From contig JAGLON010000018.1 of the NCBI GenBank assembly GCA_023138975.1, positions 160,381-224,380 on the forward strand: DNA of 64,000 bases, written 5' to 3'. Below are positions 22,533-46,577 of this stretch, piece by piece. Numbering within the stretch: position 1 is the stretch's first letter; every line of letters starts with the position of its first letter. The notes under the pieces were generated by a model, which worked only from the letters and a program-made list of their open reading frames with translations, was not told the DNA's origin and made no database searches. A program made the position numbers and the translations under genes. Origin of the DNA: Candidatus Zixiibacteriota bacterium (GTDB lineage: Bacteria > Zixibacteria > MSB-5A5 > GN15 > JAAZOE01).

Positions 22533-22659
22533 GATCCCCTCCCATCAGAATAACGCCTACAGTATATAGACTATTATAATACTGTTTTTGTTTATTTTAG
22601 GCTATGAAATATTTCCTCACAGCATTTGCATTAGTCGATGATTGTACTATCAGCCTTGT

Positions 22660-23160
22660 AGATTTAACCACCCCCTCGCCCCCTCCTTACTAAGGAGGGG
22701 GATGGGGGAGGTTCGCTGTAAACATGGATAGTAGGGCAGGTTCCCTTAGGAACCTGCCAATGCCAAACATAGGTGACATTCCTATGGCAGGACCCCTAAC
22801 AATATTAGGACTATAGCCTTTATTTCCCCTCTCTAGAGGGGACCTGTATCACGCCATCTTAGTTTATAATTCATTTGAGATGTCCAGAATAATTGCTTGT
22901 GTGTTAAAATAGACTCCAATAATTAAACCTAAACTGCAGAAATTAACAACATCGTCCCCTCTATAAGAGGGGTGCCCGACAGGCTATAGTCCCGCTCTGC
23001 GGGGGCGGGGTGTGTTAACTTGTGGAAAGCGTAAAATGGGTTTACTTGTCTGTTTAGAAAATCTTTCGAGCGTAAGCGAGTTAGATTATCTTAATCCCGC
23101 ATTTTAATGCGGGACGACGAGTACTCCGTGGATGCTCATTTTTTAAAGTTTTTTGAGTAG
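22660..23160. repeat. hairpin-module mosaic A (REP/BIME-like)
   Basis: Modules shared with other gaps: 22666-22712, 22731-22766, 22808-22818, 22948-23018, 23053-23114, 23133-23154 (see findings). Confidence 0.85.
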
Positions 23161-23439
23161 TCCTGATTCGGTTGATATGCTGGCAATGCCTTATTGAGGC
23201 CACCCGGCATGGGTTTCTAGCTACCGCGGTAATTATAATATTCTTAAGGTTTACCGTGAACATAGTTATCCATTGTTTAGACTGTTAGTTATAGAGGTGT
23301 ATTCGAGATTTGCAGTGAATTGGTACTGAATCTGTTACCTAAGTGCCTAGGCTATAGTGTCACTCAATTTTCTGAGAGATACAATTTTGAATTTCTGTTT
23401 GAACAGATTGTATCATCTGTTTCCTGCGGACACAAAGCA

Positions 23440-23466
23440 CTTGGCGGGAGAATTCTCCCGCCCAAG
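23440..23466 (-). terminator. terminator-like hairpin after the FG-GAP/dockerin gene
   Basis: cttggcgggag-aatt-ctcccgcccaag, 24 nt past the stop. Weak T-run (tgctttgtg). Confidence 0.45.
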
Positions 23467-23489
23467 TATTTAATATTGTTCACTTTAGC

Positions 23490-25844
23490 TTATTTTCCGC
23501 ATCCGTCAAGCGGTGGGCCCCCATCCCGGAAAATGAAATTAATCAGATACACAGCATCAGCGAGATTAACAATTTCATCGCCATTCATATTTCCCGCACA
23601 TAAAGGACTTGGTGCAGCTCCAGCTCTAAAAATATAGTTAATGAGAAAAACAGCATCACTGAGGTGGAGAATCCCATCACCGTTGGCGTCACCGGGCACT
23701 ACTTGACTTCCATTACTAAAGGTCTTGTTATAAAGTGTGGCGTATACTGTTGTAATATCAATGTCTCCGTCAGAGTCAAAATCAATTCCTACCGGGTTGC
23801 TCCCAATGATATGATAATGATCGGGCTCAGCAAAAGTACCATCCCCGGCTCCCAACAAAACTGTCAAGTTGCCCGATATTACCCCGGTTATATCAGGAAA
23901 TCCATCGCTATTGATATCAGCGCACAAAGGCTGTCTGCCTCCACACTCGTAATGAACAGGACCTGAGAATGTCCCATTCCCATTATTTAGAAAGATTGAT
24001 GTATTATCGTCGGTTGAAGCCGCTATATCATTGTCTCCGTCATTATCAAAATCCTCCGCCAGCAAACCATAAACTCTATCAATACTGCCCGTAGTATAGC
24101 TTACCGTATCGGCAAATGTTCCATTACCGTTACTCAGCAAGACAACAAAGCCATCTACTATTCCATATTCCAAAAACACCAGATCAACATCACCATCATC
24201 ATCTAAATCAGTAACATCCATAGCACCGGGTGCACCCCCTTCATGAAGATAAGTAGCCGTGCCGAATGTCCCGTCACCGTTATTCAGGCTTATAAAGACG
24301 CCTGATGGATAACTTGAATACGAAATAGTTAGATCGATATCTCCATCCCCATCAAAATCTCCACCCGATAGATATTTGGCTTTACTCCCAATGGAAGAAA
24401 TAATAGCTGACCCAAAAGTTCCATCACCATTATTCGGATATATATATATATCCGTCAAAAGAGAAAATCCTACTGCCAAATCAATATAATCGTCACCGTT
24501 ATAATCAGAACCAAATACTGACAGCGGACGGTCAGGAAGTGCGATGTAGTACGGTGTGTTGTAGGGATCAGGACTATTATTCAGATAAACTGAAATAGAG
24601 CTATCGCTATAATTTGCAGTAGCAATATCATCATGCATCCAATCACCATCAAGGTCGCCGACCCACATATTATAAATCGATCTTACAGCCCGATAAGGTG
24701 TTCCAGCAAACGTTCCATCGCTATTATTCATCAAGACTGCAATTGCGGTTCCTTGACTTACTGCCAGATCAACATTTCCGTCATCATCAAGATCACCAGC
24801 AACCAGCGCGGCTTTGAGACTACCGCCATAATAACCTATTGGCGAAGCAAATGTTCCATCTCCATTGTTTGAAAGAATAGCAATAGTATACGTCCCTCCC
24901 CTGCCAACAACCGCCAGATCAATATCACCATCCGCGTCAAAATCGGCGGCATTTATAGTATTCGATTTTTCAGTTGCGGCATATTTAATAGCCGCACCAA
25001 AAGCACCACTGCCGTCATTTATAAGGATTGAAACGGTATCGGTAACGCTATTAGCGAAAGCAAGGTCCTTATAACCATCACCGTTAAAATCTGCTCCGGT
25101 TACAGAATTCTGAGCCTCACCCAGATCATAATAAACGCCTGCTGCAAACCCTCCAGAACCATTGTTCAGTCGAACGCAGGCACTATTACTTCCCTTGCTG
25201 CCGACCGCCACATCGATATCTCCATCACCATTCAGGTCAGATGCAAAAATTGAATAGGGCAAGGAGCCAACCGTATGGTAGGTGGGTGTTCCAAATACGC
25301 CTGTGCTATCGTTTAGCATTATTGAAATCTGGTTATTGGTAGTTGCTGTGATTACCAGATCATTATCAAAATCACCATCAATATCGGCTATCGTCACGAA
25401 TCGAGGCTGACCGTGAGTATAGTAGCTGATTCTACTTTCAAAGGTTCCATCACCATTATTTTTCGAAACAAAGACATTTCTGCTGCCGGTAAGAATACTG
25501 GATACGCACACCAGATCGATATCGTTATCACCATCAATATCGGCTCCGCTTATAGACATCGGCAACATCCCGGTTAGGTATTCCTCCGCTTCGGCATAGG
25601 TCCCATCGCCATTGTTCAGCAAAACCGAAATATAACTATTATTTTGCGCATCAACTCTTGTGTAAACAACCGCCAAGTCAATATCGCCATCACCATCAAA
25701 ATCCGCAGCGAACATATCCCCGGCACTCCAGACCTCATAAATGGGCGGAAGCCAGTCAAAAAGGTCACCGGCTATAACATTAGCTGTGGGCGTTGAAATC
25801 ATAAAAACGGTTAATATTGTGAGTGTCATCAGCAATTTTCGCAT
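23490..25844 (-). CDS. secreted FG-GAP/VCBS-repeat (beta-propeller) protein with a C-terminal dockerin-like double repeat
   Basis: At least 11 repeats of FxxADFDGDGDIDLxV type. C-terminus GDANGDGILHLSDAVFLINYIF ... NMNGDEIVNLADAVYLINFIF. Start set at MRKLLMTLTIL (25844, GGAGA RBS); the 94-codon upstream extension in the ORF track is rejected. Confidence 0.85.
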   Translation of the reverse strand: MRKLLMTLTILTVFMISTPTANVIAGDLFDWLPPIYEVWSAGDMFAADFDGDGDIDLAVVYTRVDAQNNSYISVLLNNGDGTYAEAEEYLTGMLPMSISGADIDGDNDIDLVCVSSILTGSRNVFVSKNNGDGTFESRISYYTHGQPRFVTIADIDGDFDNDLVITATTNNQISIMLNDSTGVFGTPTYHTVGSLPYSIFASDLNGDGDIDVAVGSKGSNSACVRLNNGSGGFAAGVYYDLGEAQNSVTGADFNGDGYKDLAFANSVTDTVSILINDGSGAFGAAIKYAATEKSNTINAADFDADGDIDLAVVGRGGTYTIAILSNNGDGTFASPIGYYGGSLKAALVAGDLDDDGNVDLAVSQGTAIAVLMNNSDGTFAGTPYRAVRSIYNMWVGDLDGDWMHDDIATANYSDSSISVYLNNSPDPYNTPYYIALPDRPLSVFGSDYNGDDYIDLAVGFSLLTDIYIYPNNGDGTFGSAIISSIGSKAKYLSGGDFDGDGDIDLTISYSSYPSGVFISLNNGDGTFGTATYLHEGGAPGAMDVTDLDDDGDVDLVFLEYGIVDGFVVLLSNGNGTFADTVSYTTGSIDRVYGLLAEDFDNDGDNDIAASTDDNTSIFLNNGNGTFSGPVHYECGGRQPLCADINSDGFPDITGVISGNLTVLLGAGDGTFAEPDHYHIIGSNPVGIDFDSDGDIDITTVYATLYNKTFSNGSQVVPGDANGDGILHLSDAVFLINYIFRAGAAPSPLCAGNMNGDEIVNLADAVYLINFIFRDGGPPLDGCGK

Positions 25845-26134
25845 GTAGGATTTCTCCATAGCTAATAGGATGGTAAATATCTTCATAATATCCCCCGATG
25901 GGTGAATAACTAGTAGATGTCCGCAAATCGATTTGCCCCAGTATAAACGGATAGGCCTACCCAAATGCCCCAAACTTGGTATTGTCTCGTGTGCTCTTTT
26001 GATGCCCCGCAACGCAATAATTGCATGCGGAGAAAAGTGATACTTGTATCTATATATAATATGCAATTGTGATTCTGTCAATAGAGCTTTTTCTTCAGAC
26101 TGTAAAGCCAATAAGAGTACTCTCAACCACAGAA

Positions 26135-26170
26135 CAAAAAAGCCCCTTCGAGGTTACTCAAAAGGGCTTT
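26135..26170 (-). terminator. rho-independent terminator after tRNA-Leu
   Basis: Minus strand reads aaagccctt...aaggggcttt followed by TTTTTTG. Confidence 0.6.
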
Positions 26171-26178
26171 CAAATCTA

Positions 26179-26262
26179 TGCCGAAGGAGGGATTCGAACC
26201 CTCACGCCCGTAAGGACACTGCGCCCTGAACACAGCATGTCTACCAGTTCCATCACTTCGGC
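26179..26262 (-). tRNA. tRNA-Leu (anticodon CAG), long variable arm, CCA not encoded
   Basis: Minus strand reads GCCGAAGTGATGGAACTGGTAGACATGCTGTGTTCAGGGCGCAGTGTCCTTACGGGCGTGAGGGTTCGAATCCCTCCTTCGGCA. 7-bp acceptor stem, anticodon stem CTGTG/CGCAG with loop TTCAGGG, GGTTCGAATCC T-loop. Confidence 0.9.
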
Positions 26263-26449
26263 TTTTCCGAGCAGATAATATATATAAATATTTGGACTAA
26301 GCAACTGTTTTTTCGTCCTAATATTGCAGCCAAAAAGCTCGGAACATTCACCCCATTTGCCGATTATAACTTGTAATGATTGTTTTTGTTGTTAATCGGG
26401 AAATGAAACCAGTTCTTGTGGAAGACCCGAATAGTTTTAAGGAGACTAA

Positions 26450-27817
26450 ATGAAAGTCTGTATTAGTGTTACTCTTCTCATCTGTCTGTTATTACCATTT
26501 CCAGTCTTTGCGGTATCGCCGTATCAGCAGGAAATTTATAGCGCTCGTGACCGTGTTTTACCGGCGCTTATTCATATTCAGCCGGTGGTAATCGACTACA
26601 TTACCGGCCGGGAAAAGAAACATTCCGTGGTCGGTTCGGGAATCATTATCTCCGCCGACGGCTACGCTGTAACCAACTATCATGTTGCCGGCCGAGCCGA
26701 GCGGATCATCTGCACCCTGCATGACAGGGAGCAGGTTCCTGCAGTCCTTATCGGAGGCGATCCGGCCACCGATCTGGCCGTTATCAAATTAGACCTTTCA
26801 GAGTATTCCGGCAAGCTTGACCCGGCTGTCTTCGGTTCATCAAGCGACTTGCAAGTTGGACAAACGGTGCTGGCACTGGGTTCTCCTCTGGCTCTATCCC
26901 GCTCGCTGTCCAAGGGCGTAATATCGACTTTAAACCGCTTCTTCCCCGGCAATATAAGACTTCCCTCCGGTGAAAAAACCGGTAAGTATAATACCTGGCT
27001 GCAAACCGACGCGGCCATCAACCCCGGCAACTCCGGCGGACCGTTAGTAAATCTTGATGGCGAAGTCATGGGGATAAATACCCGAGGCGTTTTCTTTGCC
27101 GAAAACATAGGCTTTTCGATTCCGGTTGATATCGTCAAGGAAGTAACGGCCAAGCTAATTGAATTCGGAAAGGTTGACCGCAGTTGGATTGGCGTTCACG
27201 CTCAACCGCTGCAGGATCTGGAATCATTCTTCGGAACCGAAACTAACCGCGGCGTATTGATAGCCTCAATCGACCCCGGCTCACCAGCTGAGAAAGCGGG
27301 ACTGAAGGCAGGACAGATTATCCTGAAATATAATGGCCATGATGTATCGGCCCGGTTTGAGGAAGAATTGCCGGCCTTTTATCAGATTATAGCATCTTCT
27401 CCAGCCAATACCGAAGTTGAAGTTGTTCTTCATAACGGTGATGATAAAGTTATAAAGATTATTCCGAGAGCGCTGGGCGCTCTTCAGGGTGATGATTTCG
27501 ATTTCGAGAAATGGGGTTTCACCGCCAAAGCGATTACCAATCAAATGGCTATCGATCGCAGACTCGATGATACTCTGGGCGTTTTTGTGACTCAATCGGC
27601 AATGGCCGGTGCCGCCTTTAGCGGAGGTCTTCATCGAGGCGATGTTATCATGGAGCTAAACAATAAACCGGTCAACAGCCTCGATGAACTAAAAACAACC
27701 TATGATGAAATGCAGGAAGCGGAAAAAATCCTTCTGACGATTAATCGTAGCGAAACCCGCCGCCTGGTCCTGATGAAACTGGACAACGAAGAGGATACTG
27801 AAGACGATGAAAAATAA
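26450..27817 (+). CDS. htrA: HtrA/DegP-family periplasmic serine protease with two PDZ domains
   Basis: Signal peptide. Catalytic TNYHV (His), DLAVIKL (Asp), GNSGGPLV (Ser). PDZ motifs GSPAEKAGLKAGQIIL and GLHRGDVIMELN. Confidence 0.9.
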   Translation: MKVCISVTLLICLLLPFPVFAVSPYQQEIYSARDRVLPALIHIQPVVIDYITGREKKHSVVGSGIIISADGYAVTNYHVAGRAERIICTLHDREQVPAVLIGGDPATDLAVIKLDLSEYSGKLDPAVFGSSSDLQVGQTVLALGSPLALSRSLSKGVISTLNRFFPGNIRLPSGEKTGKYNTWLQTDAAINPGNSGGPLVNLDGEVMGINTRGVFFAENIGFSIPVDIVKEVTAKLIEFGKVDRSWIGVHAQPLQDLESFFGTETNRGVLIASIDPGSPAEKAGLKAGQIILKYNGHDVSARFEEELPAFYQIIASSPANTEVEVVLHNGDDKVIKIIPRALGALQGDDFDFEKWGFTAKAITNQMAIDRRLDDTLGVFVTQSAMAGAAFSGGLHRGDVIMELNNKPVNSLDELKTTYDEMQEAEKILLTINRSETRRLVLMKLDNEEDTEDDEK

Positions 27818-29204
27818 GCTGTTTGTTCTAATAATCACGATGCTGTCCGTTTCAGTTCTTTGGGCCGGAGACGCTAATTTCCAAAAGCTGTTTGATAAAG
27901 TGAACCCGCACCTCGTTTCGGTGGAATATAAGGCCGAGATGAATTTTATGGGTCAGTCCGAAGATATCGAGGGACGTGTCCCCGGCATCATTATCAACGG
28001 CAATATTGTTATCTTCGACGGGACATCATTGGGAGCCGGAAGACTGGCAACCGACATGTACGGCTCGCCTCAGGTTGATAAACCGAAATCCATCAAAATC
28101 ACGGATTATAACGACAACACGTATGATGCCGAGTATATCGGCGTTGATGATTACAGTCTAATCGCGTTTTGCCGTCTCCCCGATTCGGCCATGAAAAACC
28201 TGAAAGCAGTAGAGCTTAAAAATAAATCATTGCGGCTGGGTGAGGAAGTTTACGTTTTCTGGATGCTGCCGAAAAGCTACAATCCCAAATATCAACTGAC
28301 CAAAACCAGAATCACCTCGGTCCTGACTAAACCGGAAAAATTCTATCTCACCGGTGAACTGCCTCAGGAGTTTGTTCTGTCTCCGGTCGTTACGGCCAAA
28401 GGAGAGATGATCGGTATTATCACCCCGGTAACACAGGTACCGTCTTATACCCGCTTTGATTACGGTAACGTTTTCGGCAATCCGGTCGGGATTATGCCTC
28501 TGGAGCGGTTTGAGAAAATCATCAATAACCCGCCCGAAGAGGATAAAGTAAAACGCGGCTGGATGGGAATTTCACTTCAGGCGCTCGACCCGGAAATTGC
28601 TGAATTCTGGGATGTCAAAGTTGACGGCGGGATTATCCTAACGGATATAATCGATAATTCTCCCGCGGAAAAGGCCGGTCTGAAAGCCGGTGATTTCTTG
28701 ATCAAACTCAACGGCGAATCAATTGATGTTACGGAAGATGAAAACATTTCTATCTTCCAAAAGAAAGTTTCCGAATTAGGCGCTGGCTCGGAAATTACAC
28801 TGCTCTATATTCGTCCCGGTGACAATCAAGTGGATTCGAATGAAGTTACCATCGTTTTGGCCGAACGGCCGGGCGCTCGCAGTGACGCTCCCAAGCATGA
28901 AGATGAAAACTTCGACCTGACGGTACGGGATATGGTTTTTGCCGACTATAATGCCCGTAATCTAAAAGAGGACGAAATCTCCGGCGTCATCGTCGAGAAA
29001 ATCGAACAAGGCGGATGGGCCGCGGTCGGAGGTCTCCGTACCGGTCTTATCATCACGCAAATCAATGGCAACGAGATTGTCTCGGTTGAGGACTTCAAGA
29101 CCATCATGGCCGAGATTGAGAGCAGCAAAGACAAAGAAGTTGTATTCATGACGTGGCGGCGCAACAAGACAAAATTTGTGCACGTCAAAACCCACTGGGA
29201 ATAA
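27807..29204 (+). CDS. HtrA-like protein with two PDZ domains but a degenerate catalytic triad (pseudo-protease)
   Basis: Overlaps htrA by 11 nt. Where htrA has TNYHV it has VIFDG, and where htrA has GNSGGPLVNLDGEVMGI it has EFVLSPVVTAKGEMIGI. PDZ motifs NSPAEKAGLKAGDFLIKLNG and GLRTGLIITQING. Confidence 0.8.
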   Translation: MKNKLFVLIITMLSVSVLWAGDANFQKLFDKVNPHLVSVEYKAEMNFMGQSEDIEGRVPGIIINGNIVIFDGTSLGAGRLATDMYGSPQVDKPKSIKITDYNDNTYDAEYIGVDDYSLIAFCRLPDSAMKNLKAVELKNKSLRLGEEVYVFWMLPKSYNPKYQLTKTRITSVLTKPEKFYLTGELPQEFVLSPVVTAKGEMIGIITPVTQVPSYTRFDYGNVFGNPVGIMPLERFEKIINNPPEEDKVKRGWMGISLQALDPEIAEFWDVKVDGGIILTDIIDNSPAEKAGLKAGDFLIKLNGESIDVTEDENISIFQKKVSELGAGSEITLLYIRPGDNQVDSNEVTIVLAERPGARSDAPKHEDENFDLTVRDMVFADYNARNLKEDEISGVIVEKIEQGGWAAVGGLRTGLIITQINGNEIVSVEDFKTIMAEIESSKDKEVVFMTWRRNKTKFVHVKTHWE

Positions 29205-29902
29205 GGGAGGATGCCCCCCCTTTTTTAGGCTATTTAGAAAATCTTACGAGTTATAACGAGTTAGATTATCTTAATCCCGCGTTTTAATGCGGGAACGCGT
29301 AGATGACCTGGGTTTTATAATCATGAGTTTGCTTTTATACGGCACAGCTTCGCCTGCCTGAAGATATAAACTTTTTTTCTGACAGGGATACTCCCTTTTC
29401 AGGCAAAGCCTACTACTAAAAAGATGATTTTATAATTAACCACCCCCCATCCCCCTCCTTAGTAAGGAGGGGGGTTTCGACATTGTTCTGCCATTGTAAC
29501 TGGTCATATCCCGGCAGATGTAGATATCCCGCAACGCAGGACAATAGCCTGCCAGGCACAAAACTCCATTATGAAATTCGGTAGGTCAAGACCCCTGCGG
29601 TCTTGACAGTCGGTAGGGCAAGTTCACCCCCTACATGGGCACAATAGCCCTTAGGAACCTGCCATTGCCAACCAAAGGTTGGCAACCTAGATTCCCGCCT
29701 GCCATCAGAGGATAACTTTGTTTTTATGGTCAATCCTCTTCGTAGGGGCTGACTATGTCAGCCCGAAAAGACTTTGGCTGTGATTCCATCCGGGTCGACA
29801 GAGTCGCCCCCTACAGGGAAAATAGAATCCACTTTTTATAGAAAATGTTCAGACCATTTTTCGCCACCAATGGGTGCGGTACAAACTGCTCTAACCTACT
29901 CT
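29205..29902. repeat. hairpin-module mosaic B (REP/BIME-like)
   Basis: Modules at 29233-29294, 29346-29362, 29438-29475, 29520-29549, 29581-29607, 29637-29668, 29742-29814 and 29857-29885, all with copies in other gaps. Confidence 0.85.
29742..29814 (+). repeat. 73-bp REPIN-like inverted doublet (copy 1)
   Basis: GTAGGGGCTGAC-tat-GTCAGCCC ... GGGTCGAC-aga-GTCGCCCCCTAC. The reverse complement of 46035-46107 aligns end to end. Confidence 0.8.
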
Positions 29903-35798: not shown

Positions 35799-35819
35799 AA
35801 CTACTACATTCTAAGCACC

Positions 35820-37790: not shown

Positions 37791-37797
37791 GGCCACA

Positions 37798-38412: not shown

Positions 38413-38489
38413 TTTCTTATTTGTCCTTTATTACTATAACAACACAGGTGAGTAATATTCACTCAATCCCAATAATTTATTAAGTGAAT

Positions 38490-38575
38490 GCCAACCTGCG
38501 ATTGGCAATGTCAGGAGCACGGGGCTCCTGACCTACGGGGCTATAGTGCCCCACGCAGTGGGTAGGTTTTGACCA
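38490..38575. repeat. hairpin-module cluster H
   Basis: The reverse complement of 38502-38573 matches 32052-32105 with an internal GTAG-headed hairpin (gtaggtcaggagc-cccgt-gctcctgac). Confidence 0.8.
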
Positions 38576-38583
38576 ACAGCTTT

Positions 38584-39090
38584 CTACAATCTCTTAGATG
38601 TAAACTTTTTGGCGAGCATCTTGGAATGCTTGCGGCGCTCAAGCCGCCGCTGGTAACGCTCAGGGGCGCTCTGGTGGAGTTCTTTTTCGAAATCAGTCTC
38701 TGGAATCACCGGCAATACCGGAATGGTTTTACCGTCCTCTCCAATAGCAACAAAAGTCAAAAACGACGAGGCACAAACCTTACGTTCCGCAGTCTTCAGA
38801 TTCTCACTGATGATATTTACATAGACTTCCATCGAGGTATTATGCGTCCAGGTCACGAAGGCTTCCATACAGATCATTTCACCGACATTGATAGCATGAA
38901 GAAAATCGACCGAGTCGGTCGAAGCGGTGACGACTTGCTGACGGGCATGGCGGTAGGCGGCTATCGAGGCGATGTCGTCAATATAGTTCATGACCATGCC
39001 GCCAAACATGGTGCCCAGCACATTGGAATCGGGAGGAAGAACGAGCATGGCTTTGATGGTACGAGATTGCGCTACGGTTTTTGACTCCAC
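38584..39090 (-). CDS. acyl-CoA thioesterase (hotdog fold, YciA/BFIT-like)
   Basis: LVLPPDSNVLGTMFGGMVMNYIDDIASIAA. GTG start at 39090 is preceded by AAGGAG (39097-39102); the longer ORF-track N-terminus runs into repeat modules. Confidence 0.8.
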   Translation of the reverse strand: MESKTVAQSRTIKAMLVLPPDSNVLGTMFGGMVMNYIDDIASIAAYRHARQQVVTASTDSVDFLHAINVGEMICMEAFVTWTHNTSMEVYVNIISENLKTAERKVCASSFLTFVAIGEDGKTIPVLPVIPETDFEKELHQSAPERYQRRLERRKHSKMLAKKFTSKRL

Positions 39091-39408
39091 AAGGTTCTCC
39101 TTCTTGGGCCTGATTGTTTTATTTATACCGTCGGGCCACACTCCTGCCAGCGGCGGGGGCCAAGCCCTCAACTATATTGGGACTATAGCCGACAGAATAG
39201 GTCATTATTTTTTGTATTGTTTCGTTGGGTCTTGGCGTGCCAACGGTGCGGTGTGACCCAGCGATAGTAGTTATATAAAGTTACGAGTCGGAGGTAAAGT
39301 CAAGTTGATAATGTTTTGGAATCTCCGTATCACATTTTTAACGGTTAACTTGCTGATAGAGTAAAATAACTATAGATTGTAAGAAATAAAAAACAGCAGG
39401 AATATTTT

Positions 39409-39900
39409 ATGGATGCCACTTGCAAAGAGATGGTCTGGCGACAACTTGGCGCCGCAATCGATACTCTTGAGAACTGTATAACGGAATGCCCTGATGAACG
39501 ATGGGATGATCGAGCCAGGAGGGTAAAATACTGGTATGATGTTTTCCACGCTCTGTTCTGGCTGGACTATTATATGTCGGATGATCATGATAGTTTTCAT
39601 CCGCCGGAGCCGTTTGGTCTTGAGGAGATGGATCCGGCTGGGATAATACCCGCGCGAGCTTATACCAAAGAGGAGTTGTTGACTTATCTGAATTTTGGCC
39701 GGGAAAAAGCCAGAGCAAGGATAGAGTCTATGACGGTTGAGAAAGCGTCTGAGGTTTATAAATTCAGGAAAGCCGATGTCAGGTTAGATGAATTATTCTT
39801 GTACATTATGCGTCATATTCAGCATCATGCGGGTCAATTGAATCTGATATTGCGCGATGAATACGACCAAGGTAGTCGCTGGGTATTTCAGGCTAAATAG
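39409..39900 (+). CDS. DinB-family protein
   Basis: 163 aa; C-terminal MRHIQHHAGQL. Confidence 0.7.
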   Translation: MDATCKEMVWRQLGAAIDTLENCITECPDERWDDRARRVKYWYDVFHALFWLDYYMSDDHDSFHPPEPFGLEEMDPAGIIPARAYTKEELLTYLNFGREKARARIESMTVEKASEVYKFRKADVRLDELFLYIMRHIQHHAGQLNLILRDEYDQGSRWVFQAK

Positions 39901-39930
39901 TTACACGAACTGAACTTAAAATATTATTAT

Positions 39931-40046
39931 GTGGGCGGCAGATGTCCCATCTGCCCCTTAAATACAAAAACGGGTATATGGTTCACTGTTGTTTTTCTGG
40001 ATTCCCGACTCGTCCGCCTAACGTGCGGACTCTCGGGAATGACAGG
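39931..40046. repeat. hairpin-module cluster G
   Basis: GTGG-headed hairpin gcggcagatg-tcc-catctgcccc (39931-39957), and ctggattcccga...tcgggaatgacagg (39997-40046), a paralogue of 35871-35918. Confidence 0.8.
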
Positions 40047-40127
40047 GGTAGATGAGGGTAACTATTCTATTCCGAGCATGGAGTTTATCAACAGGCTCAA
40101 TAGCGTAATGCTTCCAATAACTCAATG

Positions 40128-40679
40128 CTACGCCGCGTTGAATGCTTGGTTGATATATAGTCCGGCGGTGAGTTCAGCTACTATCCCCTCGCCAAGCCCG
40201 TCAATATATGTACCGAAGGCGCCTTCGCTCTCAGATGATAAAGTCAGGAGTCCTACTTTTTGGCAGTCATACATAAGCGGAATAATCAAGACCGACTTAG
40301 TTCTCTCAGAGAGTATTATTTTTCTCTCAATAATGTTTGATGATATATGATCAGGATAATTGTCAGCTACAGGATATCCTTGCATAAGAACCTGATACAT
40401 GTTTGAGTTATTGTTTTGTATGATTAAGGTCAAGCCAGTGTTCCATCGGCGTCTTTTGTATATGTGTGTAACATGAAGGTTGTTTTGATTTGGATTAAAG
40501 TGCGACAGCGAGGCTTTTTCAATACTGAAAAAGCGCGATAGTTTGGCTATTGTTTGTCTTAGAAGCGTATCAATTCCTTTGGGGTCTATTTTAGTGTCCG
40601 AATAAGGTGTTTCTTTTTGATAAGTCGGCTGGTTCATTAATGACTCCACACTGCATTGATGATTCCACAAATCCGCCAT
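40128..40679 (-). CDS. GAF-like domain protein
   Basis: 183 aa; SVLIIPLMYDCQKVGLLTLSSE pattern. Last gene of the HK-RR operon. Confidence 0.55.
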   Translation of the reverse strand: MADLWNHQCSVESLMNQPTYQKETPYSDTKIDPKGIDTLLRQTIAKLSRFFSIEKASLSHFNPNQNNLHVTHIYKRRRWNTGLTLIIQNNNSNMYQVLMQGYPVADNYPDHISSNIIERKIILSERTKSVLIIPLMYDCQKVGLLTLSSESEGAFGTYIDGLGEGIVAELTAGLYINQAFNAA

Positions 40680-40704
40680 ACAAAGGCCCCCTTGATTTTA
40701 GGAT

Positions 40705-42078
40705 TTATTTCATTTTGGCCGGCTGGGCCAAATTAAATTTCTTTATTTTTCGCCACAAAGTCGTTCGTCCTATGCCCAGTTGGTTGGCGGTTAATGAATG
40801 ATTCCAGTTATTCTCTTCAAGCGATTTCAGTATTTGCAGTTTTTGACCATCCTGCAACGAGCGGGTACTTAATGAAATAGTTGGATGAGTTGTCAATTGT
40901 GTTTCTCTCGGTGAAATGAAGATAATGTCCTCATATTGAATCTGATTGCGCCCCGAAAGAGCCACTGCCCGTTTGAGAGTATTTTCCAACTCCCGGACGT
41001 TGCCGGGCCAGTTGTGCTTGAGAAGTAATTCGAGACCGTCGGCCGACAATGTAATCGGTGACCGGTTGTATTCTTTGGAAATGTTCTTCAAAAAGTATTC
41101 TGCCAGCGCCGGAATATCCTCGGGCCGTTCCCGGAGTGCTGGAATAAGTATTGGCATTACATTGAGCCGGTAATAAAGATCCTCGCGGAAGGTGCCCTCG
41201 CTGACCATCTTACTCAAATCAGCATTAGTCGCGGCAATGATTCGAACATTAATCTTGCGGGAATGATTGCCTCCCACCGGACGGACTTCTTTTTCCTGTA
41301 AAACGCGCAGGATTTTTGCCTGAAGCGGGTAGGGCAGATCGCCGACTTCGTCTAAGAATATCGTGCCGCCTTCAGCTTCCTCAAAAAGACCCTTTTTATT
41401 GGTAATGGCATTAGTAAAGGAGCCTTTAACGTGTCCGAATAACTCGGATTCCAAGAGATTTTCCGGGATGGCGGAGCAGTTGATGGGAACGAATGACTTG
41501 TCACGGCGGTCACTATGATGATGGGTCACCTTGGCGAATAATTCTTTGCCGGTACCTGATTCCCCGGTAATCAGAATCGAGATATTCATTCCGGCTATTC
41601 GATCGATGACCGATTTCAGATTGTCAATAATCTTTGAGGTTCCAATGATATTATCATACCCGAATTGATGAGCAACTTCCTGCCGTAGGTAACGGATAGT
41701 ATGTCTCAGGTCGATATGTTCTAGAGCTTTATTTACTTTGAAAACAACTTCAGCGCTTTTAAATGGTTTGGTGATATAATCCGAGGCGCCGTTTAGAATT
41801 GCCTGAACTGCGGTTTCGACGGTTCCGTAGGCGGTCATAATAATAACTTCGGTTTCTGGATGGATTCGCTTGGAATTCATTAATATATCAAGCCCTGAAT
41901 CTGAACCCAGGCGGAGATCGGTTAACACTAAATCAAAAACCTGTGATTCAAGATGAATGATGGCTTCTTTTTTATCCTGTGCTACAGAGGTATCAAATCC
42001 ATTCTTTGTAAATAACCTGAAAAGCATATTCCGCATTCCGGGTTCATCATCAACTATCAAAATCGAGGGCATTACCAC
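40705..42078 (-). CDS. sigma-54-dependent response regulator (REC + AAA+ + HTH)
   Basis: ILIVDDEPGM...DLVLTDLRLG, GESGTGKE, GSFTNA (GAFTGA variant), ELFGH, ANQLGIGRTTLWRKIKKF. Confidence 0.9.
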   Translation of the reverse strand: MVMPSILIVDDEPGMRNMLFRLFTKNGFDTSVAQDKKEAIIHLESQVFDLVLTDLRLGSDSGLDILMNSKRIHPETEVIIMTAYGTVETAVQAILNGASDYITKPFKSAEVVFKVNKALEHIDLRHTIRYLRQEVAHQFGYDNIIGTSKIIDNLKSVIDRIAGMNISILITGESGTGKELFAKVTHHHSDRRDKSFVPINCSAIPENLLESELFGHVKGSFTNAITNKKGLFEEAEGGTIFLDEVGDLPYPLQAKILRVLQEKEVRPVGGNHSRKINVRIIAATNADLSKMVSEGTFREDLYYRLNVMPILIPALRERPEDIPALAEYFLKNISKEYNRSPITLSADGLELLLKHNWPGNVRELENTLKRAVALSGRNQIQYEDIIFISPRETQLTTHPTISLSTRSLQDGQKLQILKSLEENNWNHSLTANQLGIGRTTLWRKIKKFNLAQPAKMK

Positions 42079-42805
42079 TCCTTTTATGAGTTCCGGTATT
42101 AAGAGTAATAGTTACGGTCGTACCAATGTGTTTTTCTGATTGTATACGCATATTACCGTTATGACGGCGCACAGCCTGGTCGGCAATAGATAGCCCGAGC
42201 CCGGTTTTACCCGGTTTGGTTGTAACAAATGGACAGGCAACCAGAGGCAACTGTTCGGGAGGAATCCCGGAACCATTGTCACGGATTTCTATGGTGATAC
42301 TATTGTCCTGTGAACAAACGGATAGCTTTATAGATCCGCCTGAAATATTGGTGATACTCTCAAAGGCATTTTCAAGGAGACTATCTATCATCACGCAAAT
42401 AATTTCGGAATCACCATTGAAAAACAGGTCGTCGGTACTGGAAACGAATTCTGCATTGACCGAGCTTGATTGCCCGGAGGCGCGGTCGGAGGCATGGGCT
42501 AAGCGGGATTGACACAGTTCGTTTAGATCAATCTGTATTTGAGTATTATTGTTATGGCAGGCAAAAAGGGTAAAACGCTTGAGAACGTCGTTGAGTGAAT
42601 CGGCTGCTTCTATTATACTGCGAATAAATGACAATTCGTCTTCACCAATTGGTTCATCAGGAGTCAATTCAATCTGGCTGGCAGCGGTCGTGATTACACT
42701 CAGAGGATTTCGTAACTTGTGCGTGAGCCTCTGTGCGATCCAGGGAAGCGATTGATAATCATCTGTGGAAGGACACTTTGGCACAAGCAGTGAAAGATCA
42801 CTCAT
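42050..42805 (-). CDS. soluble histidine kinase (HisKA + HATPase_c, no sensor or TM region)
   Basis: H-box RLTHKLRNPLSVI. DNGSGIP and GKTGLGLSIA (G-boxes). 251 aa. Overlaps the RR gene by 29 nt. Confidence 0.85.
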   Translation of the reverse strand: MSDLSLLVPKCPSTDDYQSLPWIAQRLTHKLRNPLSVITTAASQIELTPDEPIGEDELSFIRSIIEAADSLNDVLKRFTLFACHNNNTQIQIDLNELCQSRLAHASDRASGQSSSVNAEFVSSTDDLFFNGDSEIICVMIDSLLENAFESITNISGGSIKLSVCSQDNSITIEIRDNGSGIPPEQLPLVACPFVTTKPGKTGLGLSIADQAVRRHNGNMRIQSEKHIGTTVTITLNTGTHKRSGNALDFDS

Positions 42806-43187
42806 AGACTAACATTACCTTTTGTTTCAATCTGCAACATTTACTTAAGATATCGGCGGATTACCGCTTATATTAACAACCGGAGATCGGTTTTTTTAAT
42901 GTGATAGAGTCTGAAAAGTGATCTCCCGTTAAAGGCAAGGCCGTAACTAATGCCATATCAATACGTTACCACCGGTAAAGGGTATAGTTTTAAAATCTGA
43001 CGAGTTTAGTTTGGTCTTACTTTAGGCATCCCATTGTTTGCAGGAAGATGAATATATATTAAATTAATTCTGGTTCATCTTGAAATGAGAAAACCAAATG
43101 AAAGTAAAAATAAGGATATTTTGCGCTTTGTTTATGGCATTTCGTTTTTTTTCTTGACTAAAGAGGGCATTTTTTATAACTAAGCCT

Positions 43188-43469
43188 ATGCCAATATCAA
43201 TGGAGCAAGTCGAGCGTGTGGCCGGTCTGGCACGGCTGAAATTAACCCCCACAGAAAAAGAGTCTCTAAAAACCGAACTCTCTCAAATTATCACTTATTT
43301 TGATTTGCTCAGCGAAGTTAACACCGAAAACATTAGTCTGATTGAGGAGAATGTTTCTCCAAGGCAGCTTCGCGATGATATTCCAACCAAATCACTGGAT
43401 GTAGAAGACGCGCTTAAAAACGCTTCTCGAACAAAGGATAATTGTATTATCGTGCCTCGGATTTTATAA
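43188..43469 (+). CDS. gatC: Asp/Glu-tRNA amidotransferase subunit C
   Basis: MPISMEQVERVAGLARLKLTPTEKE...; 93 aa. Confidence 0.9.
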   Translation: MPISMEQVERVAGLARLKLTPTEKESLKTELSQIITYFDLLSEVNTENISLIEENVSPRQLRDDIPTKSLDVEDALKNASRTKDNCIIVPRIL

Positions 43470-43471
43470 CA

Positions 43472-44221
43472 GTGTCCCATGTGACCGCCATTATTCCCGC
43501 CCGCCTGCAAAGCAAGCGGTTTCCCCGCAAGGTGTTATTCCCTTTAAAAGGAAAGCCGCTGATTTATTATGTATGGAAAGCGGCGACTCAATCCAAACTA
43601 ATCAATCAAATCTTCATCGCCACTGATTCGGAAGAAATCGGACGGACGGTCAACAGTTTCGGCGGCGCCGTGATTATGACTTCAGCCAAACCAAAAAATG
43701 GGTCTGAGCGGGCGGCCGAAGCGGTTCGGGAAATGAAGACTAATATCGTGGTCAATATCCAAGCGGACAACCTAGGGCTAAAGGGTAGTATCCTTGATCG
43801 GGTTATTCGGGAAATGATAGCCGATCGGAAAATCAATTTCGCGACACTGGCTCGCAAAATCGACGGCAAGGACTGGAAGAAGAAGATTAACAACCCTGAT
43901 GTTGTAAAAACCATTATGACTGCAGACAGCCATGCCGGGTGGTTTTCACGATTACCGATTCCATACATTCAGCGTCCGGGCAGAAAACGGTCAATTGATT
44001 TATATAGTTTTTTGGAACACATCGGTGTATATTTTTATCGTAAGCAGGCTTTGATGGACTATGCCTTGTGGGACCGAGCCATGACTGAAAAAGTCGAGTC
44101 TTTGGAGCAGCTTCGGATTTTGGAAAATGGGGGTAGGATTCGACTATTTACTACTCGCACCAATATCCTGTCAGTTGACAGTAAGAAAGTATTGGAAAAA
44201 ATAGGCAATATTTTAAAATAG
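43472..44221 (+). CDS. kdsB: 3-deoxy-manno-octulosonate cytidylyltransferase (CMP-KDO synthetase)
   Basis: VTAIIPARLQSKRFPRKVL..LKGKPLIYYVW...IATDSEEI...NGSERAAEAV. GTG start chosen just after the gatC stop (uncertain by a few codons). Confidence 0.85.
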   Translation: MSHVTAIIPARLQSKRFPRKVLFPLKGKPLIYYVWKAATQSKLINQIFIATDSEEIGRTVNSFGGAVIMTSAKPKNGSERAAEAVREMKTNIVVNIQADNLGLKGSILDRVIREMIADRKINFATLARKIDGKDWKKKINNPDVVKTIMTADSHAGWFSRLPIPYIQRPGRKRSIDLYSFLEHIGVYFYRKQALMDYALWDRAMTEKVESLEQLRILENGGRIRLFTTRTNILSVDSKKVLEKIGNILK

Positions 44222-45895
44222 ATGGAGAGAGACGTGGAGGAGCGTAAGACTAAATATGTGTTTATTACCGGCGGGGTAGTATCCTCATTGGGAAAAGGGA
44301 TAGCATCGGCATCGCTGGGATTACTTCTAAAAAAACGGGGACTTTCGGTCAATATTCTCAAACTCGACCCGTATCTGAATGTTGATCCGGGGACGATGAA
44401 TCCGTTCCAGCATGGCGAGGTATATGTTCTTGATGATGGTTCCGAGACTGATCTGGATTTGGGGCATTACGAGCGGTTTCTCAATCAATCAATGTGCTCG
44501 GACAATAATGTCACTTCGGGACAAATTTATCATACCATTATTACTCGCGAACGGCGCGGAGATTATCTCGGCGCGACGGTACAGGTTATTCCTCATGTGA
44601 CAGCTGAGCTAAAATCATCGATTAAAAAACTGAGCAAAATCAACGGTCACGTTGACGTGATCATCGCTGAAATCGGCGGCACTGTTGGTGATATTGAATC
44701 GCTACCGTTTATGGAAGCGATCCGTCAAATGGGCCTGGAAGGCGACCCGTCCGATACGATGTTTATTCATCTGACATTGGTGCCGTATATTGATGCGGCC
44801 GGCGAGCTAAAAACCAAACCGACACAGCATTCGGTCAAGGCTCTCAGGGAGATCGGTATTCAGCCGAATATGCTTTTGTGCCGTACGGCCAAGACGTTAG
44901 GTGATGATATCCGCAATAAAATAGCGCTGTTCTGTTCGGTGCCGAGCAAGAACGTTATTGAAGCCATAGACGCTTCGACGATATATGAAGTACCTCTGCT
45001 GTTTGAGGAGCATGATTTTTCCAATATCGTTCTCAAGCATTTGAATATTGAGGCTCCCGAGCCGGATTTGACCGAATGGGAAGATTTGGTCAATCGTATC
45101 AAACATCCCAATAACCGGATAAAAATCGCCATTTGCGGTAAATATGTCTATCTGAAGGACGCTTATAAATCCATCATGGAAGCGTTCTATCATGCCGGAG
45201 CCGAGAATGATGCCCGGGTTGATCTGGTCTGGGTTTCTTCTGAGGATATCAAAAAAGGCGGAGCGGCCAAGTTCCTTGACGATATCGACGGCCTCTTGAT
45301 TCCGGGAGGATTCGGCGAACGGGGAGTTGAGGGTAAGATTGAGTCTATCCGGTTTATCCGCGAAAATAAAATTCCGTTTTTAGGGATTTGTCTCGGTATG
45401 CACTGTGCCGTGATTGAATACGCTCGCAATGTCTGCGGATTGAAAGACGCTCATTCGTTTGAATTTTATCGCGAACTGAAAAACCCGGTGATTCATCTCA
45501 TGGCCGATCAGGAAAAGATTACCGGTCTGGGCGGAACTATGAGGCTGGGTTCGTATCCGGCGGTCATTGAAAAAGATAGCCTTACGTATAAAGCGTATGG
45601 CGAAACAGAAATTGCCGACCGTCATCGTCATCGTTATGAGTTTAACAATAAGTACCGCGACATGGTGACCAAGGACGGAATGAAACTGGTCGGTTTGTCG
45701 CCTGATGGTAAACTGGTGGAGGTTGTTGAAATAGAGAATCATCCATGGTATGTAGCAGTGCAGTATCATCCGGAACTGAAGTCGCATCCGACCAAGCCGC
45801 ATCCGTTGTTCAGAGATTTCATTGCGGCGGCGGTGAAGTACCATAAGGAGCGTCGTTCGGCGGTAGAAAACCCGGAACAAAACTCAATAGCGTAA
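44222..45895 (+). CDS. pyrG: CTP synthase
   Basis: KYVFITGGVVSSLGKGI, GTMNPFQHGEVYV, and the glutamine amidotransferase domain PFLGICLGMH. Confidence 0.95.
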   Translation: MERDVEERKTKYVFITGGVVSSLGKGIASASLGLLLKKRGLSVNILKLDPYLNVDPGTMNPFQHGEVYVLDDGSETDLDLGHYERFLNQSMCSDNNVTSGQIYHTIITRERRGDYLGATVQVIPHVTAELKSSIKKLSKINGHVDVIIAEIGGTVGDIESLPFMEAIRQMGLEGDPSDTMFIHLTLVPYIDAAGELKTKPTQHSVKALREIGIQPNMLLCRTAKTLGDDIRNKIALFCSVPSKNVIEAIDASTIYEVPLLFEEHDFSNIVLKHLNIEAPEPDLTEWEDLVNRIKHPNNRIKIAICGKYVYLKDAYKSIMEAFYHAGAENDARVDLVWVSSEDIKKGGAAKFLDDIDGLLIPGGFGERGVEGKIESIRFIRENKIPFLGICLGMHCAVIEYARNVCGLKDAHSFEFYRELKNPVIHLMADQEKITGLGGTMRLGSYPAVIEKDSLTYKAYGETEIADRHRHRYEFNNKYRDMVTKDGMKLVGLSPDGKLVEVVEIENHPWYVAVQYHPELKSHPTKPHPLFRDFIAAAVKYHKERRSAVENPEQNSIA

Positions 45896-45920
45896 GGGGG
45901 GATGAACCCCCAGAATTAAT

Positions 45921-45950
45921 AAAAGCCTCGTATTGTACGGGGCTTTTTTT
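45921..45950 (+). terminator. rho-independent terminator after pyrG
   Basis: aaaagcctcg-tattgta-cggggc followed by TTTTTTT. Confidence 0.8.
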
Positions 45951-46034
45951 ATAGTACCTAGCAGATGTGGACCTCCCGCAAGGCAGGACTATATCCTTCG
46001 GCCTCCTCGCAGTGACGGGTTAATTACTTTCGAG

Positions 46035-46107
46035 GTAGGGGACGACTCTGTCGTCCCGTCTGGAATCACTACATGAAATTTTTCGGGCTGACAAAGTCAG
46101 CCCCTAC
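46035..46107 (-). repeat. 73-bp REPIN-like inverted doublet (copy 2, inverted relative to 29742-29814)
   Basis: GTAGGGGACGAC-tct-GTCGTCCC ... GGGCTGAC-aaa-GTCAGCCCCTAC. Confidence 0.8.
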
Positions 46108-46430
46108 GATGAAACATGTGTGAATCCCAGAATCATATTGTGATATTAGCTTTCCCAGTAGCTGTGGACATCTCTCAAGCCGGGACTATAACGTGCCAAG
46201 AACACAACAGTTCTATTCGTCATCGCGAGGAGCCATGGTGACATGGCGATCTGTCAACATCCTAAACAGACTGCCACAAAACCCTTCAGGTTTCTCGCAG
46301 TGACGGATCATTTATCTTAGCATGAGATTAGATCGGTGGCCCATCCCGTAAGAGGTTCTTACCTCGTCGGGTGGTCTAAAGTCTCATTTGGTTCCCGCTT
46401 AGCGGGATCTGAGTGACGTAGGACATAATT

Positions 46431-46491
46431 GGTAACCCATGGCTTTAGCCATGGGAAACAAAAACACCCACGGCTAAAGCCGTGGGGTACC
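46431..46491. repeat. second REPIN-like doublet (two inverted copies of the cccaYggc-ttta-gccRtggg hairpin)
   Basis: ggtaacccatggctttagccatggg-aaacaaaaaca-cccacggctaaagccgtggggtacc. Confidence 0.75.
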
Positions 46492-46525
46492 GGAACATGA
46501 ACCCCCTTATAAAAGATCCCTATAA

Positions 46526-46556
46526 CAAAAAGCCCCGTATTGTGCGGGGCTTTTTT
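46526..46556 (-). terminator. rho-independent (bidirectional) terminator after the 832-aa gene; near-duplicate of 45921-45950
   Basis: aaaaagccccg-tattgtg-cggggctttttt. Confidence 0.8.
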
Positions 46557-46577
46557 GTAACACTTGTCTAAAATACT

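Follow-up and report, generated by a model that had tools for sequence, protein, structure and literature searches.

Mosaic intergenic gaps in a Zixibacteria genome are probably built from REP-type repeats by stepwise and loop insertion

Eight long intergenic gaps lie between 22.5 and 46.6 kb of a 64-kb stretch of a Zixibacteria genome (contig JAGLON010000018.1; the whole stretch is called the window, and its GC content is about 44%). With a probability of roughly 0.72, these gaps are mosaics of repetitive extragenic palindromic (REP)-type repeats, built by stepwise insertion and by insertion into hairpin loops. Hairpin repeats and other short motifs alternate in them in variable order and orientation, which is the layout of bacterial interspersed mosaic elements (BIMEs) and Neisseria intergenic mosaic elements (NIMEs). 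The 4.77 kb of the eight gaps contain 33 perfect hairpins (stem of at least 7 bp, loop of 3-6 nt) versus 1.2 +/- 1.1 (maximum 5) in dinucleotide shuffles, and the density of such hairpins is 6.9 per kb in the gaps versus 0.41 per kb in the remaining window. Some of the repeats carry an unpaired GTAG head, others belong to a class headed by CGTC or TGTC, while the commonest family, a unit of 21-24 nt referred to below as the mini-unit, consists of a short CCC..GGG hairpin and then ACTATAG(CC) (ACTATAGCC) and has neither tag. The most informative feature of the gaps, absent from the original prediction made from the bare sequence, is the nesting of units in the loops of other hairpins.

The original prediction had described the gaps as assembled from at least 14 families of common short modules on both strands, and self-BLAST of the window together with direct reading confirms this picture. 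The family count was fair, as approximately 18 families with 2-7 copies each, on both strands, can be counted in 96 kb of this genome (the window and 32 kb of extra sequence from the same genome, to which all copy numbers given here refer). Module a recurs at 22664-22713, 29436-29473, and 37443-37490 with 86-94% identity and additional inverted matches, module b at 23053-23114 and 29233-29294 (90% over 63 nt), and module c at 22947-22983 and 32143-32179 (97%). The 22-mer of module d is identical at 23133-23154 and, inverted, 32569-32548, while module e is shared by 32062-32101 and 35955-35994 (92.5%) and has an inverted copy at 38539-38574. Modules f, g, and h are below BLAST length, although direct reading finds them within 1-2 nt of the predicted positions; the GTAG or GTGG heads proposed at 22731, 29581, 29742, 39931, and 46035 are also correct. 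Besides the eight predicted gaps, a ninth (39091-39408) contains a unit, at 39165-39190. The open reading frames (ORFs) in the gaps (e.g., 31997-32341 and 32515-33012) are translations of the repeats, as had been supposed. A 52-aa ORF called in one assembly at 32454-32612, inside a 1.27-kb gap between divergent genes, is probably spurious as well, since it has no Pfam match and overlaps module d.

Several hairpins occur both with and without a nested unit. The REP designated G1 (GTAG + GGCAGGTTCC CTTA GGAACCTGCC) is found in three states: empty at 22731-22758 on the plus strand; with one 23-nt unit (ACCCCCTACATGGGCACAATAGC) in the loop directly after the 5' arm (29626-29648, within the plus-strand copy at 29613-29663); and with two units, one per strand and in mirror positions, at 3035-3115 of L127, the right flank of the window. 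A fourth copy, at the start of the metagenomic contig L128, is empty. The G2 REP (GTAG GTCAAGACC CCTGC GGTCTTGAC A) is empty in three copies, one in the window (29581-29608, plus strand) and two in L017, an 8-kb locus of another Zixibacteria genome. In three others its loop is filled with TACCCACTGCGTGGG.ACTATAG (32062; 38573, minus strand; L127 1134), and this filled form constitutes module e: a G2-type arm GGTCAAGACC, the 23-nt unit TACCCACTGCGTGGGTACTATAG, and then CCTGTGATCCTGACATT (32052-32101, plus strand; further copies at 35955-35994, at 38502-38574 on the minus strand, and at L127 1120-1180). Composite module c (CATCGTCCCCTCT ATAAG AGGGG TGCCCGACAGG...GCGGGGTGTGTTAA; 22947-23018, plus strand) is filled once, by a 21-nt insert at 22984-23004 whose reverse complement is CCGCAGAGCGGGACTATAGCC, and is empty twice (32143-32200 and L127 2947-3000). 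A hairpin of the CGTCAYNGCGAGG type carries a unit in its loop at L127 712-768. Finally, a 24-nt insert with the hairpin ACTCGTC-AAA-GACGAGT (37555-37578, minus-strand reading) lies inside an AT-rich composite of approximately 95 nt and is missing from the paralogous composite at 32548-32623, so that one of the two copies is filled.

In the three clearest examples, the boundaries allow a reading in which the insert closes with ..ATAG and CC comes next; its position is directly after the 5' arm. Apart from a single C that is ambiguous, the junctions in G1, composite c, and the ~95-nt composite lack any target duplication. Insertion is a more parsimonious explanation than repeated precise deletion, as one and the same tagged unit occurs in the loops of unrelated host hairpins. 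Whole composites were copied too: a doublet of REPs and a 102-bp dimer, both described below, and a 109-nt block (32088-32194 versus L127 2947-3054, 92% identity).

The elements with a GTAG head correspond to a known class. An unpaired GTAG (GYAG/GTRG) at one end of a stem-loop defines the GTAG REP superfamily (Di Nocera 2013, PMC3733652), and a REPIN is an inverted pair of REPs that forms one long hairpin and replicates as a unit (Bertels & Rainey 2011, PMC3116915). A census of hairpins with their flanks revealed an unpaired 5' GTAG on at least seven elements (22731, 29581, 29613, 29742, 46035, and, on the minus strand, 29814 and 46107), as well as GTRG heads on five more, among them 29520, 45967, 46164, and 39931. 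The stems of the GTAG elements measure 8-10 bp and the loops 3-5 nt, within the 6-13 bp and short loops of the superfamily, and the stems form sub-families related by compensatory changes. When G2 is aligned with its copies from another genome, GTAG is invariant, pairing is 100%, and four of the nine pairs show compensatory changes; in the alignment of a third family, G3, GTAG is likewise invariant, 97% of the positions are paired, and two pairs are compensatory. Two G3 REPs form a head-to-head doublet at 29742-29814 on the plus strand (GTAGGGGCTGAC TAT GTCAGCCC ... GGGTCGAC AGA GTCGCCCCCTAC), which folds end to end as one long hairpin (z = -3.7). A second, inverted doublet occupies 46035-46107 on the minus strand; according to self-BLAST, 29740-29814 and 46109-46035 are 84% identical over 76 nt. 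The G3 doublets thus have the layout of a REPIN, in which inverted REPs separated by a short spacer were copied as a unit and, in the first doublet, fold as one hairpin. A GTGG-headed hairpin (GCGGCAGATG TCC CATCTGCCCC; 39931-39957, plus strand) has related copies in L017 and L128.

The likeness to GTAG REPs and REPINs therefore extends from the head, the GC-rich stem, the short loop, and the compensatory stem variants to head-to-head doublets 20-30 nt apart and to the presence of several families per genome in extragenic clusters. The differences are the Zixibacteria host, the foreign mini-units in the loops of several GTAG REPs, and the copy number, which is known for 96 kb only. In proteobacteria, GTAG-tagged REPs and REPINs are mobilized by REP-associated tyrosine transposases (RAYTs; IS200/IS605-like HUH/Y1 enzymes; Nunvar 2010). 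REPIN-RAYT systems reach tens to hundreds of copies genome-wide versus 2-7 clustered copies per family in the 96 kb here, and because of this clustering an extrapolated genome-wide number would be unreliable.

The second tagged class consists of REPs of the CGTC superfamily. Its members have a CGTC (or TGTC/CCTC) head, a stem of 8-9 bp starting with AT, a loop of 4-5 nt, and a CCA-type tail, and occur mainly as head-to-head dimers and clusters (PMC3733652). In agreement with the description of CGTC-1, the head (CGTC or TGTC), an 8-bp stem beginning with AT, a 4-nt loop, and a CCA tail are found in the window, together with dimers and clusters at two sites. At 32709-32994 (plus strand, z = -6.3), a tandem array comprises 2.8 copies of a 102-bp unit, giving three tandem head-to-head dimers; each unit is composed of two TGTC-tagged REPs and an AT-rich spacer. 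The first REP of the unit reads TGTCTCCCCTGC GAAA GCAGGGGTCCA (TGTCTCCCCTGC GAAA GCAGGGG TCCA), and the second is the reverse complement of TGTCATTCCCGT GAAA ACGGGAATCCA; the minus strand at 32764-32790 (three copies) reads TGTC ATTCCCGT GAAA ACGGGAAT CCA. A CRISPR-like reading of the array was rejected, as the units are REP dimers and have no variable spacers. The other head-to-head dimer (35819-35916, plus strand) begins with a canonical REP, CGTC ATACCCGT GAAA ACGGGTAT CCA, at 35819-35845, followed at 35873-35916 by an inverted long-loop variant, GGATTCCCGACTCG..ACTCTCGGGAATGACA. A further long-loop element (GGATTCCCGACTCGTCCGCCTAACGTGCGGACTCTCGGGAATGACA; 39999-40044, minus strand) has the same variant form in L017, L127, and L128.

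The core of this family, GGATTCCCG..CGGGAATGAC, corresponds as reverse complement to the NTS/dRS3 consensus of Neisseria, CGTCATTCCCGCGMAVGCGGGAATCYRG (PMC11893778). The reverse complement of 32764-32790, TGTCATTCCCGTGAAAACGGGAATCCAT, agrees with the NTS consensus in 24 of 28 positions, and two of the four mismatches represent a single compensatory change from a C-G to a T-A pair; at 35819-35846, the CGTC head and the CCAG tail are both exact. According to Chenal et al. (2025, PMC11893778), SsnA, a single-domain GIY-YIG nuclease of ~94 aa specific for single-stranded DNA (ssDNA), binds this motif (termed SRM, for Ssn-related motif) and cuts just upstream of it; SRMs flank 71% of ssnA homologues, and the NTS-ssnA-NTS arrangement was likened to REP-RAYT-REP. 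Ssn genes (cd10448) encode single-domain GIY-YIG proteins of ~90-100 aa and usually have SRMs on their flanks. In addition, CGTC REPs were never found beside tyrosine transposase genes in the genomes examined by Di Nocera et al. (PMC3733652). As SRMs are linked to GIY-YIG Ssn enzymes and CGTC REPs have no transposase association, a RAYT is not the best-supported partner of the CGTC class. The elements of the window resemble CGTC REPs, dRS3, NTS, and SRM in head, tail, stem, loop, head-to-head dimers, and tandem clusters; unlike in Neisseria, most heads are TGTC, some long-loop variants specific to the lineage contain an inner hairpin, there are extra stem types (CCCCTGC, ATCGCGAG, and CCCTCT), and the 96 kb yielded no Ssn gene.

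A scan of 185,579 species-representative genomes with the motif GGATTCCCG-N(4-34)-CGGGAATGAC returned at least 120 loci with the exact core in many phyla. The matches listed come from Bacteroidota, Chloroflexota, all proteobacterial classes, Nitrospirota, Planctomycetota, phyla of the Candidate Phyla Radiation (CPR), Zixibacteria, and Latescibacterota, and include Neisseria lactamica; a typical copy among them is ctGGATTCCCGCYTTCGCGGGAATGACg. Among these matches, even very distant phyla (CPR included) have a nearly identical dRS3/NTS-type hairpin. In several genomes (e.g., L113, L068, L012, L079, and L111), long-loop variants stand beside canonical copies in the same locus and contain extra hairpin-forming sequence directly after the 5' arm. 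One contig with two canonical SRM hairpins (L009, CAMAPQ010000003.1), labelled as a Klebsiella pneumoniae metagenome-assembled genome (MAG), has an AT-rich context atypical for Klebsiella and may be a binning contaminant. A GIY-YIG ORF directly adjoins the hairpins in two of the loci listed, L047 and L115; these Ssn-like ORFs were found with an E. coli YhbQ sequence, which served as a seed only.

The mini-unit stands apart from both tagged classes. Its stems vary with mutual compensation (CCCGC/GCGGG, CCCAC/GTGGG, CCCC/GGGG, and CCTAA/TTAGG) and precede ACWATAGCC. For the loose 9-mer pattern RCWATAGCC, the window has 10 matches versus 1.0 expected, and approximately 17 genuine hairpin-bearing mini-units are present in the 96 kb. 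Family f, at 29520-29549 on the plus strand (GTRGA..T, a CCCGCA..GCAGG hairpin, and an ACWATAGCC tail), with further copies at 37757-37786, 45967-45996, and 46164-46192, is a longer version of the mini-unit with a GTRGA head. A search of 890 kb from other genomes found no hairpin-bearing ACTATAGCC unit. A 14-mer of it gave 62 single matches in the viral contigs of IMG/VR, which is chance level, and none of these had the hairpin; the long-loop SRM had no matches in IMG/VR. Other modules include the long palindrome of family a (AACCACCCCC..CCCCTCCTT NNN AAGGAGGGG..GGGGGAGGTT; 22666-22712, z = -5.3), with further copies at 29438-29475 and 37444-37490 and in L127, L017, and L128, and an inverted pair of GGTA-headed hairpins, CCCAYGGC TTWA GCCRTGGG, at 46436-46486, with a third copy at 32260-32283 and others in L127 and L128.

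The same families recur outside the window. L017, from the Zixibacteria MAG AC1.147, contains them in another order: family a, two G2 REPs, a long-loop SRM, a GGCAGATG hairpin, a CGTCATTGCGAG hairpin, and a canonical SRM. A metagenome scan with the long-loop variant of the Zixibacteria type matched two short contigs, one of which is L128, a 1.3-kb JGI contig with G1, a GGTA-CCCACGGC hairpin, a long-loop SRM, GGCAGATG, CGTCATCGCGAG, and family a located 5' of an unrelated gene. The closest relatives that could be reached through the S41 peptidase of the window (L124 and L125, 56-60% protein identity) retain partial synteny (S41-4HBT-DinB), and their gaps, short at 76-352 bp, contain no modules and only a background density of hairpins. 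Similarly, the 10 kb to the left of the window (L126) are free of modules, while the right flank has two more mosaic gaps (L127 625-1293 and 2485-3440), approximately 6-9 kb past the window end. The confinement to the central 24 kb, as predicted, thus holds inside the window only. Given the other order in L017 and L128, the absence from L124 and L125, and the recurrence in L127, the mosaics are neither conserved colinear RNAs, a possibility that the prediction had itself raised, nor restricted to this region. From the sequences compared, the families appear to have expanded in one Zixibacteria lineage, filling whichever gaps were available.

How the mosaics grew can be proposed as follows. REP-type repeats, each a hairpin with an unpaired tag, would be recognized as ssDNA by small nucleases or transposases whose genes lie elsewhere in the genome. 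The GTAG REPs and REPINs would be mobilized in trans by a RAYT-type HUH enzyme, and the CGTC/SRM hairpins would at least be recognized and cut by an Ssn-type GIY-YIG nuclease; both the ssDNA-based mobilization and the identity of the enzymes are what we infer. Extruded hairpins would serve as preferred insertion targets, which would lead to nested mosaics: units would be inserted beside older hairpins and into their loops, where the 5' arm meets the loop, and in a later step whole composites (REP doublets, the 102-bp dimer unit, and the 109-nt composite) would be duplicated. The original prediction had taken the REP elements and BIMEs of enterobacteria as its model. The canonical GTAG REPs, REPIN-like doublets, and clustered mosaics agree with this, but many modules have CGTC or TGTC tags, the commonest family is untagged, and the NIMEs of Neisseria are at least as close. 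Like NIMEs and BIMEs, the gaps are long intergenic regions of interleaved short repeat families in variable order and orientation, often situated beside surface-protein genes (here, genes for FG-GAP, dockerin, cohesin, and type IX secretion system (T9SS) proteins). They differ in the repertoire of repeats and in being partly hierarchical, with hairpins in hairpins, rather than only side by side.

No gene for the proposed enzymes was located. Pfam searches of 30 window ORFs and five flank ORFs, together with precomputed tables, revealed no Y1_Tnp, GIY-YIG, DDE, or integrase domain, and a hidden Markov model (HMM) derived from the two Ssn-like ORFs in L047 and L115 matched nothing in the window, even at E = 100, nor in L001-L003; the predicted absence of a transposase from the window is thereby upheld. 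In L126 and L127, no GIY-YIG domain appears in the precomputed Pfam columns, the sole check made there. A degraded GIY-YIG gene suspected within 32340-32710 was unsupported by ORF translation and HMM search. In L127, about 7 kb past the right window end, a gene at 1293-2270 encodes a DUF4268 protein of 325 aa whose N-terminus faintly resembles NucS. Together with an overlapping 72-aa ORF it occupies 1293-2485, with mosaics on both sides. It is a possible candidate for a nuclease partner of the repeats, the mini-unit included, but only a lead, since many genes in the region are flanked by mosaics. Two paralogous genes for type IV pilin-like proteins (8583-9038 and 9142-9573) share 78% DNA identity over 330 nt. 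A scan of the second revealed an N_methyl motif, along with a match to the ComP receptor domain for DNA-uptake sequences that does not reach the cut-off (E = 8e-5). The pair may be of interest because Ssn and NTS modulate natural transformation in Neisseria.

Among the alternatives, the hairpins might be immobile functional signals that arose in place (terminators, mRNA-stabilizing 3' structures, sites for nucleoid proteins or gyrase, or small RNAs), with selection, local duplication, or gene conversion accounting for their likeness. This would agree with the location of six of the eight gaps 3' of at least one gene (four convergent and two co-directional), with two true intrinsic terminators (45921 and 46527), with the compensatory changes that keep the stems paired, and with the action of REPs elsewhere as RNA or protein-binding elements (PMC3733652). 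However, most of the hairpins lack T-runs, occur in both orientations, and also fill the 1.27-kb divergent promoter gap. Identical tagged units disrupt unrelated hairpins from inside their loops (the fold of a hairpin carrying a nested unit has z = -0.6), and the relatives are entirely free of the modules. No Rfam family covers them either: a search of 22000-47000 against Rfam 15 at E<=1 found only tRNA-Leu (26179-26262) above the gathering score, the four other matches (E 0.02-0.38) were far below threshold, and no repeat module reached the threshold of any covariance model, so a structured-RNA family was rejected. An origin in place is thus unlikely, and a secondary function of the hairpins would leave their origin unexplained. 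Mobilization of all families by a RAYT, the CGTC and ACTATAGCC ones included, would extend to the whole set what the GTAG and GTRG heads (at least seven and five elements, respectively) and the REPIN-like doublets suggest for one class; moreover, the reverse strand of the mini-unit (GGCT-ATAG-T + hairpin) possibly presents a degenerate GTAG tag. Yet in the literature cited above CGTC REPs were not found beside tyrosine transposase genes in any genome examined and are associated with Ssn GIY-YIG genes, and there is no RAYT in the 96 kb, making a single RAYT-type mechanism distinctly unlikely. The RAYT layout of the original prediction therefore fits the GTAG class but not the CGTC/TGTC class, which the literature links to a GIY-YIG nuclease (PMC11893778; PMC3733652). 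Miniature inverted-repeat transposable elements (MITEs) moved by a classical DDE transposase share with the modules their short, repeated, intergenic, and non-coding nature, and some composites do reach 95-110 nt. The units themselves, at 21-50 nt, are nevertheless under MITE size: each consists of one hairpin and an asymmetric tag instead of a segment of more than 50 nt bounded by terminal inverted repeats, no fixed target-site duplication accompanies them beyond the ambiguous 1 nt in a C-run, and no DDE transposase lies nearby. A MITE origin is highly improbable.

An assembly artefact (collapsed or chimeric repeats in a metagenome bin) is hardly credible, although the contig does have one questionable join. 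The sample is a cold-seep metagenome from Site-F in the South China Sea (PMC9357000), and an NCBI protein labelled 'candidate division Zixibacteria bacterium' has exactly the sequence of the S41 peptidase encoded in the window, in line with the non-proteobacterial host assumed by the prediction. The stretch 16450-33838 is 100% identical to scaffold_5 of the ENA assembly ZHAN22-2_SAMN18200495 (L003), and 33807-45779 is 99.98% identical to contig DAOWAE010000005.1 of GCA_030634725.1 (L001). Both diverge from the window past the common 32-bp stretch 33807-33838, which lies inside the ORF 33219-34064 and encodes the conserved ..NYPNPFNPTT.. motif of the T9SS sorting domain. Since L003 and L001 continue differently, the window contig is either recombinant between paralogous sorting domains or chimeric at this point, and because of this hybrid join the 'central 24 kb' may represent two joined genomic regions. 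The GC skew turns from negative to positive at ~32-34 kb, coinciding with the join. A replication origin at this switch was considered and dropped, as DnaA boxes do not cluster (2 in the window vs 2.3 expected), and a misjoin of two oppositely replicated regions at ~32-34 kb is as likely as an origin or a terminus. In favor of an artefact, the join is absent from two other assemblies, and these are at least partly derived from reads of the same sample (SAMN18200495 / SRR13892605), as are all the assemblies. On the other hand, the join is located in a coding region at the sorting-domain motif and touches no gap, seven of the eight gaps are base-for-base the same in L003 or L001 (the last, 45896-46577, is outside their coverage), the modules are far below read length, and the same families occur in independent samples (L017 and L128).

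Growth by stepwise and loop insertion is therefore preferred, and several points weigh against it. The enzymes are assumed, as neither a Y1_Tnp/RAYT nor a GIY-YIG/Ssn gene is present in the 96 kb examined; Ssn was shown only to cleave ssDNA, and transposition of CGTC REPs was never shown (PMC11893778; PMC3733652). The choice of insertion over precise deletion is a parsimony argument from the sequences of a handful of sites. The nearest relatives in the protein database, only 56-60% identical, are too distant for strain-level presence or absence, and the ACTATAGCC family, missing from the other genomes and IMG/VR, is specific to this lineage as far as these searches reach.

More tentatively, the mini-unit might constitute a class of its own, an ultra-small mobile DNA that is still active or was so until recently, with a tag that is neither GTAG nor CGTC, inserting orientation-specifically and without target duplication at the 5' arm/loop junction of REP hairpins exposed as ssDNA. 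Insertion on either strand of a palindromic target would then produce the +1 and +2 states. Judging from the extra sequence at the same SRM junction in other phyla (L113 and L068), which hints in this direction, loop insertion may be general; if so, recursive loop insertion would be a general growth route of REP/NIME-type mosaics, and the L113 and L068 insertions would reflect the same process. Among the nearest precedents, REPs inside palindromes were described for GTAG-15 of A. variabilis, GTAG-23 of T. roseum, and CGTC-1 of H. neapolitanus (PMC3733652), and insertion sequences such as IS1397 and IS1111/IS110 target REPs (PMC3116915). Hairpins are the preferred insertion targets there as well as here, but the element inserted here is itself a hairpin of 21-24 nt, and it goes into the stem-loop junction of a different REP family. 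Another near precedent, the small dispersed repeats (SDRs) of Nostoc punctiforme described by Elhai et al. in 2008, are reportedly non-coding and apparently mobile, 21-27 nt long, and nested in other repeats, and are said to have no obvious target duplication and no known enzyme. Their sequences are unrelated and their phylum is different, so the likeness is a lead, not a test.

Two other repeats are unrelated to the REP families. An ordinary intrinsic terminator (AAAAGCCTCG..CGGGGCTTTTTTT; 45921-45953, plus strand) and a near-identical one at 46527-46556, which serves the convergent gene, are not REPs; they are 93% identical, have T-runs on both sides, and enclose the last mosaic gap, so that each of the convergent genes has one. 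An 18-bp tandem repeat (ATCAGACAGGTCTCCACC, 2.8 copies, 1796-1846) lies in frame in a 692-aa ORF (98-2176) and has no relation to the hairpin families.

GTAG REPs and REPINs, CGTC REPs/SRMs, and NIME/BIME-type mosaics are kinds already known, and the original prediction overstated how unusual it is to find several REP families together or in a non-proteobacterial host: both are documented, with tagged REPs known from eight phyla (PMC3733652). New here are the phylum, the presence of both super-families with approximately 18 families in a few kb, the mini-unit with its different conserved tail, and the clear empty, +1, and +2 states of hairpin-loop insertion. The finding is informative for REP biology, though not surprising in kind, and experimental follow-up would be hard in an uncultured organism. 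REP-type hairpins belong to the most abundant non-coding repeats of bacteria, and their spread is only partly understood, especially for the CGTC/SRM class. In a candidate phylum known only from metagenomes, both tagged super-families coexist with an untagged mini-family, and the dRS3/NTS motif, studied as a feature of Neisseria, is essentially unchanged in Zixibacteria and many other phyla. Such mosaics yield spurious ORFs and complicate the assembly of MAGs, and they could serve as a marker of this Zixibacteria clade. The empty, single-filled, and double-filled sites fix the insertion point at the stem-loop junction of another hairpin and constrain the mechanism by which the mosaics would have grown, pointing to a ssDNA hairpin as the target and to orientation-specific insertion with no duplication.

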